From positions 1 to 25,112 of the IMG/VR virus record IMGVR_UViG_3300011434_000022: a stretch of 25,112 nt of DNA. One strand, given 5' to 3'. This document shows, piece after piece, positions 2,877 through 25,112 of the stretch. The position numbers and the translations under genes are program-made. The notes below the pieces were generated by a model. The model was not told the DNA's origin. It made no database searches and saw nothing but the letters and a program-made list of their open reading frames with translations. Within the stretch, counting starts at the first letter, position 1; each line of letters opens with the position of its first letter. This DNA comes from a virus. Taxonomy: Duplodnaviria; Caudoviricetes.

Positions 2877-4537
2877 CCGAGATGATTAGGGCAGCAGTGC
2901 GCGGCGTGAAGATCGTGGAGGCTGCCGAAGGTGGTGACGCCGGCGATGGTCCCGCCCGTACCGTCGCCGGCGTCGCCGTCCAGTACGGCGTCACGGGACG
3001 TGTGTCGAACGGGTGGCTTGTCCGGTTCGAGGCTGGGTCGCTGGGCGATCCTGACTCGGTGAAGTTGTACCGCGACCATGAGTACCCGATCGGGATTGTC
3101 GCCTCATGGGAGGACGACGAGGACAGCCGGTCGATCGTCGGGAAGATCAGCCGGTTTCCCCGTGGCGATGAGGCGCTCGCTCTCGCCGCGGACGGTGTCC
3201 TCGATTCGTTCTCCGTCGGTGTGCAACCGCTCGAGTACACGTTCGAAGCGTCCGACGAGCATCACGGCGAAGAAGTGCTCGTCGTCCACAAAGGGTTGTG
3301 GGCGGAGACGTCGTTGCTTCCGTTCGGAGCGTTCCCCGGGGCGAAGGTCACGAAGGTGGCCGCGTCCGCTGTTCTCACTCACCCATCCAACATCAAGGAG
3401 GCCCCAGTGGCTGATACCCCCGTGGTCGAGGCCGCTGAGGCCCCGCCCGTCACCGTTGTCCCGATGACCGACCCTGCGCTCCCGCAGATCGCGGCGTCGC
3501 TCGAGAAGCTCACCGAGCTGGCGAACCGCACCTACGAGCAGCCCGCCACCGTCCCGGCTGGTATGCCCACCCCGGACGCTGATCCGTTCCTCAACGCCGG
3601 TGAGTACACCTTCTACTTCCTGCGAGCGAAGAACGGCGACAAGGCCGCGATCCAGCGGATCCAGGCTGCCATGCCGAAGCTCGACATCGAAGCGGCGTTG
3701 ACCACGGTTGGTACGACGACCCATTCGGGGATCGTTCCGCCGGCGTACACCACCGAGATCCTCGGCAATCTTCCCGTGTGGACCCCTGCTCTCGATGGGA
3801 TGGTCCGCCACGCTGCACTCCCCGAGAAGGGCATGTCGATCATCAAGCCGCGGTGGACCGACCTGCCGGAAGGCGACTGGTACCCGACGGAGAACGCCGA
3901 GCCGGCCACCGACGCCACCGCGATTGGCACCGAAACGGTGTCGGTCCTCGCGTGGGCGCACGCCATCCGCGCTTCGATCGCGCTAATCGAACGGTCCTCG
4001 TTCGGCGGGTACGCACAGGCGTACTTTGATGCGGTCGGCATGTCGTACCTGTCCGACAAGGAGAAGCTCGTGGTTGACACGATCTTCTCCGAGGCGACTG
4101 CCTCCGTGAGTTTCACGCCGAACACGACGACCCCGCTCGTGTCGATCGGTGAGCTCCTCGAGGATCTCGTTGACAACCAGTCGGACGTCAACGGCAACTT
4201 CCGCGGTTTTCGCCCCGACTACGTTGGTGTGTCGGCCAACGAGTTCGCGCAGCTCATGCGGACCGAAGGGGTGTTCCAGTGGGCGCAGGGTTCGCTGCTC
4301 ATCCCCTCGCTCGAAGGGGCACTCTCCGGTTTGCAGATCGTGCTGCTGCCGACCCGCCCTCCTGGCGACTACGTCATGGGTGCCCGCGCTGCGACACTCG
4401 TGTACGACCAGGCGAACGAGACGGAGCTTCGGGCGGAGATCCCCTCGACGATGAGCATCGAGCTTGGCGTCATGTTCTTCACCGCCGTGGACGTCGAGTA
4501 CCCGGACGCCATCGTCAAGGCCACCTTCGGTTCCTGA
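2873..4537 (+). CDS. Prohead protease - major capsid protein fusion
   Basis: N-terminal HK97-type protease (LYRDH, DGVLDSFSVG, ETSLLPFGAF), then Pro/Ala-rich linker and HK97-fold capsid (GIVPP..., YPDAIVK). Confidence 0.88.
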   Translation: MTEMIRAAVRGVKIVEAAEGGDAGDGPARTVAGVAVQYGVTGRVSNGWLVRFEAGSLGDPDSVKLYRDHEYPIGIVASWEDDEDSRSIVGKISRFPRGDEALALAADGVLDSFSVGVQPLEYTFEASDEHHGEEVLVVHKGLWAETSLLPFGAFPGAKVTKVAASAVLTHPSNIKEAPVADTPVVEAAEAPPVTVVPMTDPALPQIAASLEKLTELANRTYEQPATVPAGMPTPDADPFLNAGEYTFYFLRAKNGDKAAIQRIQAAMPKLDIEAALTTVGTTTHSGIVPPAYTTEILGNLPVWTPALDGMVRHAALPEKGMSIIKPRWTDLPEGDWYPTENAEPATDATAIGTETVSVLAWAHAIRASIALIERSSFGGYAQAYFDAVGMSYLSDKEKLVVDTIFSEATASVSFTPNTTTPLVSIGELLEDLVDNQSDVNGNFRGFRPDYVGVSANEFAQLMRTEGVFQWAQGSLLIPSLEGALSGLQIVLLPTRPPGDYVMGARAATLVYDQANETELRAEIPSTMSIELGVMFFTAVDVEYPDAIVKATFGS

Positions 4538-19121: not shown

Positions 19122-19273
19122 GCGAGGAGCATGACGAGGGCGACCGCGACGGCGAACACGGCCAGCCCGGCGAGCACGCCGAGGAGTACTTTGATCCCGG
19201 CGAGCAGATCGGCGATCCGTTCGAGGGTCTGCTGCTCTCTCGTGGTCGGCGGAGGGGGAATGGTGGTGTTCAT
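19118..19273 (-). CDS. 51-aa membrane protein (MNTTIPPPP...)
   Basis: GAAGGA SD; C-terminal TM helix; follows integrase in the same operon. Confidence 0.65.
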   Translation of the reverse strand: MNTTIPPPPTTREQQTLERIADLLAGIKVLLGVLAGLAVFAVAVALVMLLA

Positions 19274-19287
19274 AGCGTGATCATCCT

Positions 19288-20100
19288 TCATGCCGGTGTT
19301 GCGTACAACTGGTCGACGAGGCTTTGCCCTCGCGGGTTCGCCCACTGCACGTAGATCATCGTCGTGTCCGGCGACTCGTGCCCCATCAACTTCTGGACGG
19401 AGATCAGGTCCCCGCCGGCGATCTCCGCGAGCGACGTGGCGAACGAGGCGCGCAGCTGGTGCGGATGCATGTCGACGCCGACATGCATGAACGCTGTCTT
19501 GATCCGCTGGTACACCGCCTCCGTGCGCAGATGGCTCCCCGTTGTCGGTGACGGGAACACCCAGCCGGGGGGGAGGTCAGACATCGCTTCGACGAGCGCC
19601 GGGTGTAATGGCTGCTGGCGCGCCTTGTCGCCCTTCCCGTGCTCGACGATGAGGGTCCGCTTGTGGATGTGGACGTCCTCGGCGCTGAGGGCGGCGATCT
19701 CCGCGACGCGCAGCCCGGCGTAGGCGGCGAGCATGATCATCAGTCTGGTGGTGGCGTGCGGCGCGCAGGCGATCGCCGCCAAGATGACCTCACCAGACAG
19801 CGGACGGGGGATCGTCTTGCGGACCTTCACCGGGTCGGTTCGGTCCATCGGGCTCAACTCGACGTGGTCACGGCGGACCGCCCACCGGTAGAAGCAGATC
19901 AGGTCCGACCGGTAATGCGCCCGAGTCCTCGGCGATTTCAGCTGGCGGAGCCATTCCTCGACGTCGCTCGTCTTCGCGGCGAGGATGTCGAGCTCGGGTC
20001 CGAGGAACTTCTGGAAGCTACGCAGCGCGGTGCAACGCCTACGCACCGTGGCCGGTGAGAGGTTGCACGCCTCCTGGTGGCGCGCAAAGGCGTCGATCAT
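19288..20100 (-). CDS. int: Tyrosine recombinase/integrase, XerC/D-like, without arm-binding domain (~270 aa)
   Basis: AGLRVAEI (R), GKGDK (K), HQLR (HxxR), MGH..TTMIY (H, Y); GAAAGGG SD; start at ATG 20100 or GTG 20103. Confidence 0.93.
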   Translation of the reverse strand: MIDAFARHQEACNLSPATVRRRCTALRSFQKFLGPELDILAAKTSDVEEWLRQLKSPRTRAHYRSDLICFYRWAVRRDHVELSPMDRTDPVKVRKTIPRPLSGEVILAAIACAPHATTRLMIMLAAYAGLRVAEIAALSAEDVHIHKRTLIVEHGKGDKARQQPLHPALVEAMSDLPPGWVFPSPTTGSHLRTEAVYQRIKTAFMHVGVDMHPHQLRASFATSLAEIAGGDLISVQKLMGHESPDTTMIYVQWANPRGQSLVDQLYATPA

Positions 20101-20195
20101 CACATGCTCGCCCTTTCGCCGACCCCTGGCCCCCCGCCGCAGGTTGGTGCGTGATGATGCGCGCACAGAGCGTGATGTTGCAACAGGCGACACCG

Positions 20196-20222
20196 TCGGT
20201 TACACCACTTCTTCGATGTAAC
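20196..20222. repeat. Direct repeat copy A, TCGGTTACACCACTTCTTCGATGTAAC
   Basis: 21/27 identical to 20966-20992; internal GTTAC-N14-GTAAC dyad; contains the MTase stop codon. Confidence 0.75.
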
Positions 20223-20718
20223 ACAGTTGGGGTAGTGCGAAGATGGCGCCGACCGCGCCAGAGCCGGGGAACAGGTCGATGATCTCATCGGTTGGCAAAG
20301 CGCCAAGGAGGTCCATGATCCAACGGGCGAACGCTTCGGGCTTAGCGCCCGTGAAGCCTCGACGGAGGGTGATCGATGCGGACAGGTGGTCGCGGCCCAC
20401 CGGTTCATCGGGACGTCGGGGTAAGTGCCGGTGAAACAACACCGGTTCCCATGTGTAAGCAACGCGAACGTTGCGTTTGAAGGCGGCGAACGGCTTGACC
20501 CACGCAGCGACACGGGTGCCGGCAGGCGATGCTGGGAGCAGGTCACGCAGCGATGGGGCAGAGGCAGACATGGCCCACCCGTCGAAGCTGGCATCCATCT
20601 GTGCCATGAGCGCGACATGGCTGGCGGGGTCATCCCAGCGGGCGGCGTCGGGATGCTCCGGGTAGAGGTGAGCGCAGCCGAGGTAGGGCGGATCGGCATA
20701 GGCAAACTTGGCCATCAT
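20200..20718 (-). CDS. Compact DNA amino-methyltransferase (beta class, probably N6-adenine), 172 aa
   Basis: YADPPY catalytic motif N-terminal, KP and DLFPGSG SAM-binding motif C-terminal; GAGGT SD and ATGA overlap. Confidence 0.85.
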   Translation of the reverse strand: MMAKFAYADPPYLGCAHLYPEHPDAARWDDPASHVALMAQMDASFDGWAMSASAPSLRDLLPASPAGTRVAAWVKPFAAFKRNVRVAYTWEPVLFHRHLPRRPDEPVGRDHLSASITLRRGFTGAKPEAFARWIMDLLGALPTDEIIDLFPGSGAVGAIFALPQLCYIEEVV

Positions 20719-20966
20719 CGGTGACCTCGCTGCGCGTCGGGTCGGGTGTGGCCATGAACGGGACAGTCGGGGTGCGGCCCATCGCTCGCGCTCCTGTTGG
20801 CACAGATGCACACAGCTCGTTGGAGCAGGACGATGGCGTCACGGTAGGCGTCTTCCATACCTGACCAGTACGAGGCTTGCTTTCCTGTGGCGTTGTCTGC
20901 ATCGGCGGACGCCGAGTACGCACGGGTCGTCAGTTCGAGCAGAAGGTCAGTGAGTTGTTCGATCAT
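20715..20966 (-). CDS. Hypothetical 83-aa protein with CxC...PDCPVHG metal-binding motif
   Basis: GAGG SD supplied by repeat copy B; coupled to the MTase. Confidence 0.7.
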   Translation of the reverse strand: MIEQLTDLLLELTTRAYSASADADNATGKQASYWSGMEDAYRDAIVLLQRAVCICANRSASDGPHPDCPVHGHTRPDAQRGHR

Positions 20967-20992
20967 CGGTTACCTCGCTGGTTCGTTGTAAC
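20966..20992. repeat. Direct repeat copy B, TCGGTTACCTCGCTGGTTCGTTGTAAC
   Basis: Partner of 20196-20222; contains the repressor stop codon and the SD of the next gene. Confidence 0.75.
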
Positions 20993-21443
20993 GGTTCGCC
21001 TGTCGGTGAGCCGTCCGTGGGTGGGTTAGCCGTGGGCGCCGCTGATACTCCGCGGTAACAGCGACTGTAGCGGCGCTAGCCTTGCGGTGCCGTTGGGGGG
21101 CCCGCGTCAACTCCCCACGGTCAGCGCGGGCAGAGTGAGGGCGGGCGGCTGATCTCAACAGTCGGGCGCGTTCAGCGAGCGCCGGGTGAAGGTCCTCGAG
21201 CGTCGTGCCGTAGTAGCCGGCAAGAGCGCTGGTGGTGAGAAGGTCGGCGGAGTAGGGGTCCAGCGCGCCCTTGTGGGCCTTGCGGATCCACTCGCCGGTC
21301 GGCGTGTGGTTGGGCCCGAGCACTTCTAGCAGGGCGTACTCGATCGTTCGGTAGGCGGGGGATCCGGCCTGGTCGTGGAGCGCCGTCAGTGAACCACCCA
21401 GCTCTGCGGCGGCGCTCGTGTTCTTGGTGCGAGTCACAGGCAC
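20970..21443 (-). CDS. Probable immunity repressor (XRE-like HTH)
   Basis: LTALHDQAGSPAYRTI..EWIRK..LAGYYGTTLEDL resembles XRE HTH domains; divergent from a cro-like gene and upstream of integrase. Confidence 0.65.
   Translation of the reverse strand: MPVTRTKNTSAAAELGGSLTALHDQAGSPAYRTIEYALLEVLGPNHTPTGEWIRKAHKGALDPYSADLLTTSALAGYYGTTLEDLHPALAERARLLRSAARPHSARADRGELTRAPQRHRKASAATVAVTAEYQRRPRLTHPRTAHRQANRYNEPAR
21038..21065. other. Candidate attP core: GCCGCTGATAC-TCCGCG-GTAACAGCGAC (11-6-11)
   Basis: Arms are 9/11 inverted-complementary around an asymmetric 6-bp spacer; dif-like geometry; lies inside the repressor 3' end. Confidence 0.55.
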
Positions 21444-21446
21444 ACC

Positions 21447-21550
21447 TTGCCAGAAATGTTGCAGGTTCGCAACGGACGAACCGGACGGTTGAAGATGCCA
21501 CTTGACACGTTGCCAAGATCTATGGCAATACTATTGGCAATGGCTGGCAA
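21447..21550. promoter_or_regulatory. Divergent promoter/operator region of the lysis-lysogeny switch
   Basis: TTGACA at 21502-21507; -10 candidates AATACT/TACTAT at 21527-21534; TTGCCA at 21447 and 21510; TGGCAA at 21523, 21535 and 21545. Confidence 0.7.
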
Positions 21551-21755
21551 GATCCTTCCTCTGGTCGACCGCCTCGTTCCCGGCGGGCTCGGCCCCAAGC
21601 TCGCAGAGTGGGCCGGCGACGACCTCTCCACCGAGGAGATGGCCTCCCGGCTCGCCACCGACTTCGCCGTCGACGTGACACGAGAAACGGTCCGCATGTG
21701 GCTCCACCACTACGGGGTCAGCACCAAGCGGATGAGCGGCGGAGAAGTCGCATGA
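21540..21755 (+). CDS. Cro-like HTH protein (71 aa), probably leaderless
   Basis: STEEMASRL..VDVTRETVRMWL HTH; ATG sits 5-7 nt after the -10 candidates with no SD. Confidence 0.7.
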   Translation: MAGKILPLVDRLVPGGLGPKLAEWAGDDLSTEEMASRLATDFAVDVTRETVRMWLHHYGVSTKRMSGGEVA

Positions 21756-23733: not shown

Positions 23734-24498
23734 GTGCCCCGCAAGCTCACCACGACCGCCCTCTCCGCAGGGTTCCTACTCCTGCTCATGGCCGGGCCGG
23801 CACCCGACGCCGGCGCACAAACGTCACCCCCGCCGACCGTCCCCTGCCCCGGTTGCGGCCCGTCTGGGACGAAGCTCCCCGGTAACTCCGGGCGGGCCTG
23901 GTCCTACCCAGAGCATCGCTGCGTCGTCATGAACGGCGTCAACCGCTCCAACTTCAACCTCGTGTTCGGCCTCTCCAACGGCTACCCCAACCCTGTCAGC
24001 TTCCAAGCCACCGTCGATGATGTCGCGACGGCGACGCCGCTCGTCACCGTCCCCCTCGGCACCCTCACCGCCGGCCAGCAACGCACCACCGGCACGATCG
24101 TCACCGTCCCCCCGAACGTCACCATCACCATGAAGGTCACCGCCCGTGACACGGTCACCGGTGCCGTCGTTCAGTTCGGTGACGGCACGCTGGTGAAGAC
24201 CTCGCAGCTCACCTGTGACTGCGTCCAGCCGAACACCACGACCACCTCGAGCGTTCCTGCTACCAGTTCGCCTCCGTCGAGTGTTCCCAGCACTCCGGGG
24301 ACGACGGTTCCGGGCACACCGACGACCACCCCCTCGTTGCCGGTTGTGCCCGGAACCCCTACCACGGCGGTCCTGTCCGAGCTGCCCGCTACCGGTACGA
24401 CGACCCGCAATGTGGGGATCGCCGGAGGTTTCGCTCTCGTCATCGGCGCTGTGATGGTGTACGCCGCCATCCGCCGGCCGGAACACGACGACGCATGA
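23734..24498 (+). CDS. LPxTG-type cell-surface protein
   Basis: Signal peptide, Cys-containing domain, Pro/Thr/Ser linker, LPATG (24382-24396), TM helix and IRRP tail. Confidence 0.8.
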   Translation: MPRKLTTTALSAGFLLLLMAGPAPDAGAQTSPPPTVPCPGCGPSGTKLPGNSGRAWSYPEHRCVVMNGVNRSNFNLVFGLSNGYPNPVSFQATVDDVATATPLVTVPLGTLTAGQQRTTGTIVTVPPNVTITMKVTARDTVTGAVVQFGDGTLVKTSQLTCDCVQPNTTTTSSVPATSSPPSSVPSTPGTTVPGTPTTTPSLPVVPGTPTTAVLSELPATGTTTRNVGIAGGFALVIGAVMVYAAIRRPEHDDA

Positions 24499-25112
24499 TC
24501 GACCTGCAGCACGGGCAGGCACGGCTCTACATCGGCGACGTCTTCGCCCGTATGGCCGACCTGCCCGACGGGTCCATCGACCTGATCGTCACCAGCCCAC
24601 CGTTCCTCGCCCTCCGCAGCTACCTGCCGGCCGATCATCCCGACAAGCACCTCGAGATCGGCTCCGAAGCGACACCCGCCGAGTTCTTGGACACGCTGCT
24701 GGCGTTGACGGCGGAGTGGCGGCGGCTGCTCGCCCCCCACGGGTCGATCGCTGTCGAGCTTGGGGACACCTATGCGGGGAGTGGCGGGGCAGGCGGCGAC
24801 TACAACGCCGACGGGCTACGGGAAGGTCAGGAGAAGTTCGATGGGTCAGCGCGCAGGAGCGGGGGCAGGGTGACGCTCGCCGACGGTCGCACCATCCAAG
24901 GCAACGGCATCGGGAACGGACAGGAACGCAAGGGCTCCGGTTGGCCGCTCGACAAGTCGCTGTCCGGCATCCCCACCCTCTACACCTGGTCACTCGCCTA
25001 CGGCCGCAACCTCCTCACCGGACAACCATCCCCCGCCGGCCAATGGCGCATCCGGAACCTCATCCCGTGGGTGCGCCCCAACCCGCCCGTCGGCGCACTC
25101 GGCGACAAGTGC
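24495..25112 (+). CDS. DNA methyltransferase (beta class, N4-C/N6-A), 3'-truncated by window end
   Basis: Manual translation MIDLQHGQARLYIGDV..LPDGSIDLIVTSPPF..LLAPHGSIAVELGDTY; open to the window end; not in the ORF track. Confidence 0.88.
   Translation, partial: MIDLQHGQARLYIGDVFARMADLPDGSIDLIVTSPPFLALRSYLPADHPDKHLEIGSEATPAEFLDTLLALTAEWRRLLAPHGSIAVELGDTYAGSGGAGGDYNADGLREGQEKFDGSARRSGGRVTLADGRTIQGNGIGNGQERKGSGWPLDKSLSGIPTLYTWSLAYGRNLLTGQPSPAGQWRIRNLIPWVRPNPPVGALGDKC

Follow-up and report, generated by a model that had tools for sequence, protein, structure and literature searches.

A probable two-gene insertion at the repressor stop codon of an integration-dependent-immunity-like phage switch

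The repressor-integrase locus and its genes

The window, that is, the whole 25,112-nt stretch of viral DNA analysed here (IMG/VR record IMGVR_UViG_3300011434_000022), belongs to a temperate tailed phage, with terminase, portal, capsid, tape measure and endolysin genes on the plus strand, a leftward block made up of the integrase gene, two small ones and that of a repressor-like protein, and after it a rightward cro-like gene. The features on which the argument draws are these:

19288..20100, minus strand: arm-less tyrosine integrase of 270 aa (domain search, alignment), possibly 31 aa longer if started from an in-frame GTG at 20193
20196..20222: copy A, GTTAC-N14-GTAAC dyad with the methyltransferase stop; putative original junction of repressor end and integrase leader
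20200..20718, minus strand: predicted minimal beta-class amino-methyltransferase of 172 aa (DPPY ... FPGSG), cargo gene 2 (fold match)
20714..20732: copy C, 19-bp partial repeat with a ribosome-binding motif, where the 83-aa gene stops and the methyltransferase starts
20715..20966, minus strand: orphan ORF of 83 aa, cargo gene 1, with no informative structural look-alike
20962..20992: copy B (27-bp core 20966-20992), dyad where the repressor stops and the 83-aa gene, with its GAGG, starts
20970..21443, minus strand: repressor-like protein of 157 aa, lambda-cI/XRE-like helical head and unstructured tail; the tail contains D and ends in B
21044..21071, minus strand: site D, predicted attP, GCTAC-N7-GTTAC-N6-GTATC, in the repressor tail (motif conservation)
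21447..21550: control region where TGGCAA/TTGCCA hexamers recur as candidate operators for the repressor; motif unlike A and B
21540..21755, plus strand: divergent Cro-like gene, 71 aa, so called from its position, with no family match above cut-off

The integrase has R131, K156, H214, R217, H241 and Y250, all invariant in the alignment, and consists of the SAM_1 and Phage_integrase domains only, without the N-terminal arm-binding domain. Its C-terminus ends in TPA, and many homologues end in A or AA. Because the nearest cultured integrases come from Gordonia phages and mycobacteriophages (35-37% identity; cluster P phages such as Fishburne, 35%), an actinobacterial host is suggested; at the DNA level, the region found no match among cultured phages. 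The tRNA scan of the window and the Rfam scan returned no tRNA and no Rfam match of note. One locus of the comparison set, L154, is the record identical to that of the window. In the groundwater run X4, contigs that share about 90-95% identity with the integrase gene (window 19363-19960) point to a second close relative. A GTGTCGC motif (window 20186-20195), possibly a host-regulator site, recurs shortly upstream of the integrase start in L080, L082, L095, L134 and L232.

The repressor-like protein joins a head of about 95 aa, conserved among 71 homologues, to a tail of the variable kind seen throughout the family. The head folds like lambda cI/XRE domains (Foldseek E about 0.06, probability 1.0); across the family (P0033-P0103, about 70 clusters) Pfam matches are almost absent, 4/70 having weak HTH scores. 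The C-terminal end is AA in 50/71 homologues and in 32/47 repressors adjoining related integrases; the window repressor ends in PAR and its relative P0093 in EVV, so that neither has an ssrA-like AA tag. Several tails of the family, as we take it, resemble translated tRNA sequence. The AA-ended family, together with the co-orientation of repressor and integrase and the divergent cro-like gene, gives the locus the signature of integration-dependent immunity (PMC3694055; PMC9262239). The TGGCAA/TTGCCA hexamers between repressor and cro-like gene have a counterpart in L071 (3090-3210), likewise as candidate operators.

For the two cargo genes, no promoter or terminator of their own was detected, nor any internal terminator in the repressor-cargo-integrase run. 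A homologue search with the 83-aa protein found itself only. The 172-aa protein has a DPPY catalytic motif before an FxGxG motif and a Rossmann-type fold; its model (pLDDT 88) matches the folds of MboIIA, CcrM and BceJIV at E about 2e-5, and it is thus a predicted beta-class N6-adenine/N4-cytosine DNA methyltransferase, with no match in Pfam, PHROG or NCBIfam. Its C-terminal ~10 aa, modelled at low confidence, are partly encoded by copy A. Homologues are encoded in 71 viral loci.

Repeats, half-sites and a predicted integration site

A preliminary description of this DNA had singled out A (20196-20222) and B (20966-20992) as direct repeats with 21/27 identity at a spacing of 770 bp, having the consensus TCGGTTAC-N8-TTCGWTGTAAC and a GTTAC-N14-GTAAC dyad in each copy. 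All of this holds, as does the claim that the repeats bracket the genes precisely: the repressor ORF stops at the TAA in B and the methyltransferase ORF at the TAA in A, and B supplies both the GAGG (SD) and the A of the ATG to the 83-aa gene. The two stop codons, said to be in the same frame, do occupy the same register within the repeat; a shared reading frame they do not have, 770 not being a multiple of 3. An identity of 21/27 is by itself unremarkable in this GC-rich region, given that such a pair is present in 13/39 other overlapping 1.2-kb tiles, and one as good as A/B in 8/200 Markov-shuffled copies of the region. The A/B consensus at up to 3 mismatches gave two matches in the window and none in 100 shuffles, as a pattern drawn post hoc from both copies. 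Beyond chance are the position of the repeats at gene ends, the match to the repressor end of a relative, and the clustering of half-sites, with six GWTAC in 20190-21075 (886 bp) against 1.24 expected (P about 0.002).

Copy C, overlooked at first, is 18/19 identical to B (20962-20980), a tighter match than that of A and B; it was equalled in 0/200 shuffles, and a C-type repeat stands nowhere else in the window. C lies at the junction of the 83-aa gene and the methyltransferase and lacks the dyad half facing the repressor. Because it splits the block, the cargo is seen as two units, one of 248 bp from B to C and one of 522 bp from C to A. The extents of the matches are specific: on the minus strand, the A/B identity block spans a GT(T/G)AC half-site and exactly 6 bp more; on the plus strand, the B/C identity extends one base past a GT(T/G)AC half-site plus 6 bp, reaching 7 bp beyond the half-site with the start codon included. 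Five of the six A/B differences fall within 8 central bases and both half-sites are kept, a pattern more suggestive of selection for protein binding than of neutral decay.

Site D had likewise gone unnoticed. In the closest integrase loci, the gene immediately upstream is usually the repressor, with GWTAC-N7-GWTAC-N6-GTAWC in its tail. A template for D was picked by eye and a matrix derived from the 14/21 close non-self loci that match at least 11/15 template bases. With this matrix of 14 non-self relatives, D ranks 1 of 50,168 window positions (score 20.7; next 13.0), and at their best registers A is ranked 32, B 13 and C 390 of 50,168; a core-only matrix places A at 14 and B at 24 of 50,168. 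A search of the window with the D pattern gave one match, 0.06 being expected. Within D, a 9-6-9 dyad spans 21040-21063, with the predicted crossover in 21049-21054; D stands 52 bp from B. Sites of the D type are found in 21/47 repressor-bearing loci (window and training loci included: the window, L076, L077, L151, L155-L162, L166-L169, L173, L174, L185, L192, L202), 26-134 bp before the repressor stop. By this conservation, D is read as a predicted attP inside the repressor tail. The tRNA T-loop motif occurs in 0/21 of these sites, and relaxed ARAGORN returned 3 doubtful calls in 2 loci. Given that the 6-bp spacers are highly variable (19 distinct among 21 loci), tolerance of spacer mismatch by the integrase could be meant. 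Site D presumably resembles the displaced extra half-site of Brujita. The three-half-site motif of these 21 loci marks a candidate tRNA-independent, possibly spacer-tolerant subfamily, probably of more interest than the cassette.

Searches for the chromosomal side of the reaction yielded no attB, attL or attR, and a D-core scan of genome contigs gave nothing relevant. Prophage ends were sought with the integrase profile at strict E (0/294 and 0/401 genomes) and with the repressor profile (0/401 genomes), in each case with few candidates scored per genome and no positive control. An integrase scan of genome contigs (5/64 parts) met distant enzymes only, and a second one of viral contigs added no usable close loci.

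That A and B serve as the integrase's working sites, as had been proposed, finds no support in their architecture: their half-sites are 14 bp apart as opposed to the family's 6, their centres are mismatched, and the conserved core of the family is D, a different site. The dyad centres of A and B differ at 2/6 positions, and an off-centre register by the minus-strand GTTAC matches at 5/6. When A and B are forced to the 6-bp spacing, they find only poor partner half-sites (2-3 of 5), scoring no better than about a dozen unrelated positions in the window. Relatives were expected to keep the GTTAC-N14-GTAAC boundaries around varying cargo; the dyad occurs in 0/122 other integrase loci within 400 bp upstream of the integrase, where the nearest dyad-like spacings are N16 in L167 and N11 in L082. 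In the viral contigs, the dyad pattern matched once, in the unrelated phage L073, where it lies upstream of a parA-like gene, and we take this as chance; the GGTTAC/GTAACC repeat cluster found there (2917-3025), ahead of the parA-like gene and its small partner, looks like a plasmid-type partition site. A role of A and B as repressor operators is unlikely, since the control regions of the window and of L071 have TGGCAA-type repeats and no GWTAC; it is also disfavoured by the A-type end travelling with an unrelated repressor head.

An empty site in a relative, and cargo elsewhere

A likely glimpse of the locus without the block is afforded by a relative. P0093 has an XRE head unrelated to that of the window repressor and a similar tail (26/59 identical) that is colinear to the stop; P0003 is an integrase 79% identical to the window's. 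Each is listed under ENA with 1 member and 1 contig, the longest contig being 2033 bp, and from these metadata the two probably share one 2033-bp contig. If so, the genes and a 99-bp gap take 1329 bp, and 2099 bp would be taken with the block, so there is no room for the 770 bp; the 522-bp methyltransferase unit alone would fit (1847 bp). In codon comparison, P0093 goes with the window repressor tail (14 versus 38 minimum nucleotide differences of 66). The last 8 codons of P0093 follow A (2/24 differences) and not B (8/24), and its last 7 residues are identical at 5/7 to the methyltransferase end in A and at 1/7 to the repressor end; among other ORF ends, 0/1601 reach even 3/7. The switch from repressor-like to A-like codons falls at the repeat or shortly before it. 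Over the 8 codons that precede B, the match to P0093 is poor (11/24 minimum differences), so that a donor tail, and not duplication, may have brought B in. The codons of P0093 are also compatible with a site D, whose spacer differs from the window's at 2/6 positions by codon constraint. A scan of viral contigs for P0093-type tails gave nothing relevant, and one with the repressor alignment found no relative.

The relative, in short, ends in A-type sequence where B stands in the window. The reading of the 770-bp block as an insertion at the repeats gains from this end and from the contig size, as do the earlier proposals of a direct repressor-integrase junction and of an exchange of the repressor's C-terminal residues. 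The block is very likely an insertion. Copy A would be the original repressor end, in which case the insertion gave the repressor new last few residues.

A recognisable repressor is present in 47/123 integrase loci (window included), with none recognised in 76. Among the 46 other repressor-bearing loci, 41 are without cargo, the gap being under 200 bp, and 5 have cargo, different in each. In four actinobacterial-type loci read by eye (L078, L079, L092, L149), the cargo is coupled to the repressor at its stop codon, and the dyad is missing. The cargo of L078/L001, L079, L092 and L149, between repressor and integrase, consists of one or two small, unrelated genes; in L079 a 9-bp repeat surrounds both stops, and the cargo end of L092 resembles the repressor-integrase junction of L166. 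A distal GTAAC follows the core by 61-63 bp in L167, L174, L185 and L202, and distal half-sites overall are not enriched (8 observed versus 5.5 expected). In our literature search, no publication came up that deals with repeat-bounded cargo between the repressor and integrase genes of such switches, which does not prove that there is none.

The methyltransferase family offers a second comparison. Among its 63 distinct loci (74 hits minus 11 self, partial, edge-cut or duplicate), 10 have start-versus-end repeats of their own (at least 15/18), unrelated in sequence to one another, and cross-locus control pairs have such repeats in 0/600. In L029, L043, L053, L061, L063, L002 and L003, the ends of the methyltransferase gene carry 15-18-bp direct repeats over the ribosome-binding site and the gene end. 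Direct repeats with a sequence of their own around this small methyltransferase family constitute a countable signature of the movement of phage accessory genes.

Origin of the block and relation to known systems

The block is probably best understood as two genes that were inserted where the repressor of an integration-dependent-immunity-like switch stops, and that are now fixed, with A, B and C as short-homology junction scars rather than recombination sites in use. A fixed insertion, rather than a swappable cassette, is likely because the predicted integration site lies separately in the repressor tail. In the proposed sequence of events, the ancestral order would have been repressor, A, integrase. 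Two units, the 522-bp one with the methyltransferase (C to A) and the 248-bp one with the 83-aa gene (B to C), would have arrived stepwise at the stop/ribosome-binding junction, and translation of each cargo gene would have become coupled to that of its predecessor. The repressor promoter would, in the free phage, drive a single transcript for the repressor, both cargo genes and the integrase. Integration at D would remove about the last 25 codons of the repressor and cut B, the cargo and the integrase off from the repressor promoter, as is described for the CyranoPS integrase in a preprint. The methyltransferase would be made early in infection, as follows from expression of the cargo in the free phage before integration, and could plausibly shield the phage DNA from restriction, a role suggested by the class of the enzyme. 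Should the proposal be correct, the repeats themselves are ordinary junction scars. The wider interest would then be that a minimal lysis-lysogeny switch can gain genes: cargo placed at the repressor stop, expressed only before integration, and altering a repressor tail that controls stability.

Several observations speak against this explanation: the junction homologies, a half-site plus 6 bp, match the geometry that an integrase crossover would leave; the kept half-sites around a drifted centre look selected; the codons ahead of B fit P0093 badly; the presumed contig of P0093 and P0003 has room for the 522-bp unit; the searches for attB, attL and attR gave none; and the window repressor lacks the AA end. 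A rare one-way capture, in which the phage's own arm-less integrase inserted cargo circles at secondary half-sites beside attP, twice, with subsequent fixation, is the strongest competitor, although we regard it as rather unlikely. It would account for the homologies in both events and for the six GWTAC half-sites gathered within 886 bp, and it sits well with the ranks of A and B in the core-only matrix and with D spacers that differ in 19/21 loci; aberrant integrase events are named as a source of mosaicism (PMC3694055, PMC9262239), and the CyranoPS preprint speaks of arm-less integrases without directionality. Such a capture is at odds with the poor partner half-sites at 6-bp spacing, equalled at about a dozen unrelated positions, and with the B/C identity running 7 bp past the half-site into the start codon. 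Moreover, no such half-sites accompany the stop-codon junctions of the cargo in L078, L079, L092 and L149, and unrelated junction repeats are common around the methyltransferase family. A broader variant, somewhat speculative and in our judgement unlikely, has a tRNA-independent, spacer-tolerant arm-less integrase constitute the switch and also capture genes beside attP, in a cargo slot that rewrites the degradation tag of the repressor. The underlying motif merits attention in any case: a compact predicted attP motif is common to about twenty uncultured phages, with no tRNA remnant and with many 6-bp spacers. If the integrase does tolerate spacer mismatch, this bears on the origin of phage mosaicism, and the enzyme could be useful as a small recombinase.

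Module exchange provides a further alternative, to which we assign low probability. Copies A and B would be the same accessory integrase-binding dyad, B having come with the repressor tail and cargo of a related phage, and A having been left before the integrase. That B stands exactly where P0093 has the A-type end agrees with this, as do the drift of the centre between kept half-sites, the distal GTAAC 61-63 bp past the core in four loci (L167, L174, L185, L202), and the divergence from P0093 of the 24 nt before B. The N14 dyad, however, is absent from all 122 other loci within 400 bp upstream of the integrase, distal half-sites are unenriched, and the dyad alone leaves the joining of the methyltransferase end to A unexplained.

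A programmed reversible cassette, in which the integrase exchanges A with B, releases a 770-bp circle and toggles the repressor C-terminus and methylation, is highly improbable: the precise bracketing of the genes with stop codons within both repeats, the empty site suggested by the relative and the intact tyrosine recombinase next to the block would suit it, and against these are set the 14-bp spacing where the family has 6, centres that differ (2/6; 5/8 in the variable block), a dyad that is not conserved, a copy C that splits the block without half of the dyad, the failing integron profile, and the want of any A/B joint in the assembled contigs.

The last two points need some detail. Neither a reversible switch nor the excision of 770 bp finds support in the contigs of 8 runs (24 listed), among which no A/B junction occurs; the check, made on contigs only, at low depth and with rare variants dropped in assembly, is a weak negative. 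Filled junctions are seen in runs X1, X4, X6 and X11. Other joints, 20110-20830 (X4, side 21) and 19172-20641 (X10, side 25), likely come from other organisms, and shares near 0.65, considered as block loss, reflect patchy cover instead. The comparison with integron cassettes fails at the enzyme, which scores 65.9 bits with TIGR02249 (cut-off 265) and 45.4 with NF011946 (cut-off 435). The R box GTTRRRY is absent, all four GTT-starting heptamers in A and B having C at position 5, and no attC-like hairpin stands out on either strand of A or B (z-scores 0.26 to -1.70). The likenesses that remain (PMC9892861) are tandem promoter-less genes behind repeats, a stop codon in a TAAC motif, an adjacent tyrosine recombinase and methyltransferase cargo, some integron cassettes being phage-borne; unlike attC sites, the window repeats are only 19-27 bp long and of unequal extent, next to an integrase far below the IntI cut-off.

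Integration-dependent immunity is known from the mycobacteriophages BPs, Brujita, Charlie and those of cluster P and from the corynephage CyranoPS (PMC3694055; PMC9262239; PMC9635641; bioRxiv 10.64898/2026.10.29.762952). With these switches, the window shares a co-oriented repressor and arm-less integrase, the divergent cro-like gene, a predicted attP in the repressor gene's 3' end, and AA ends across the repressor family. Unlike them, it has two cargo genes between repressor and integrase, its repressor and the nearest relative have no AA end, the family of its repressor head has almost no Pfam matches, and the predicted attP bears no tRNA remnant, whereas the known systems all use a tRNA attB according to the review. 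The locus is best described as a variant, not a member, of this group, because the AA end and the tRNA remnant were looked for and are lacking. Tyrosine integrases of other phages are known to use a non-tRNA attB (dnaJ2, PMC6109161).

Phage accessory genes are termed morons. Aberrant integrase events and short imperfect homology are both given as sources of phage mosaicism in PMC9262239 and PMC3945230, and the block resembles accessory genes acquired by short-homology or illegitimate recombination as treated there, in being single coupled genes at gene ends with short junction repeats. It is distinguished from the insertions described there by a junction that is the repressor stop beside attP and by repeats built of integrase-type half-sites. 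The SAS/ESAS elements of cluster K mycobacteriophages (PMC3203893) are also short repeats before gene starts, overlapping the ribosome-binding site and containing an inverted repeat; they number 11-19 per genome, and the window motif stands at two gene starts only, in 25 kb of an about 37-kb genome. The SAS-type motif search of these 25 kb gave 2 exact copies and 2 three-mismatch matches, the latter antisense in structural genes.

Lastly, two further genes lie beyond the cro-like gene. At 23734-24498 (plus strand), in the early region, a 254-aa protein is encoded that has a signal-peptide-like start, a Thr/Pro-rich linker and an LPXTG-like sorting signal (weak Pfam match), and is a possible host-surface protein; at 24495-25112 (plus strand) follows another DNA methyltransferase (N6_N4_Mtase), larger than the first and truncated where the window ends.
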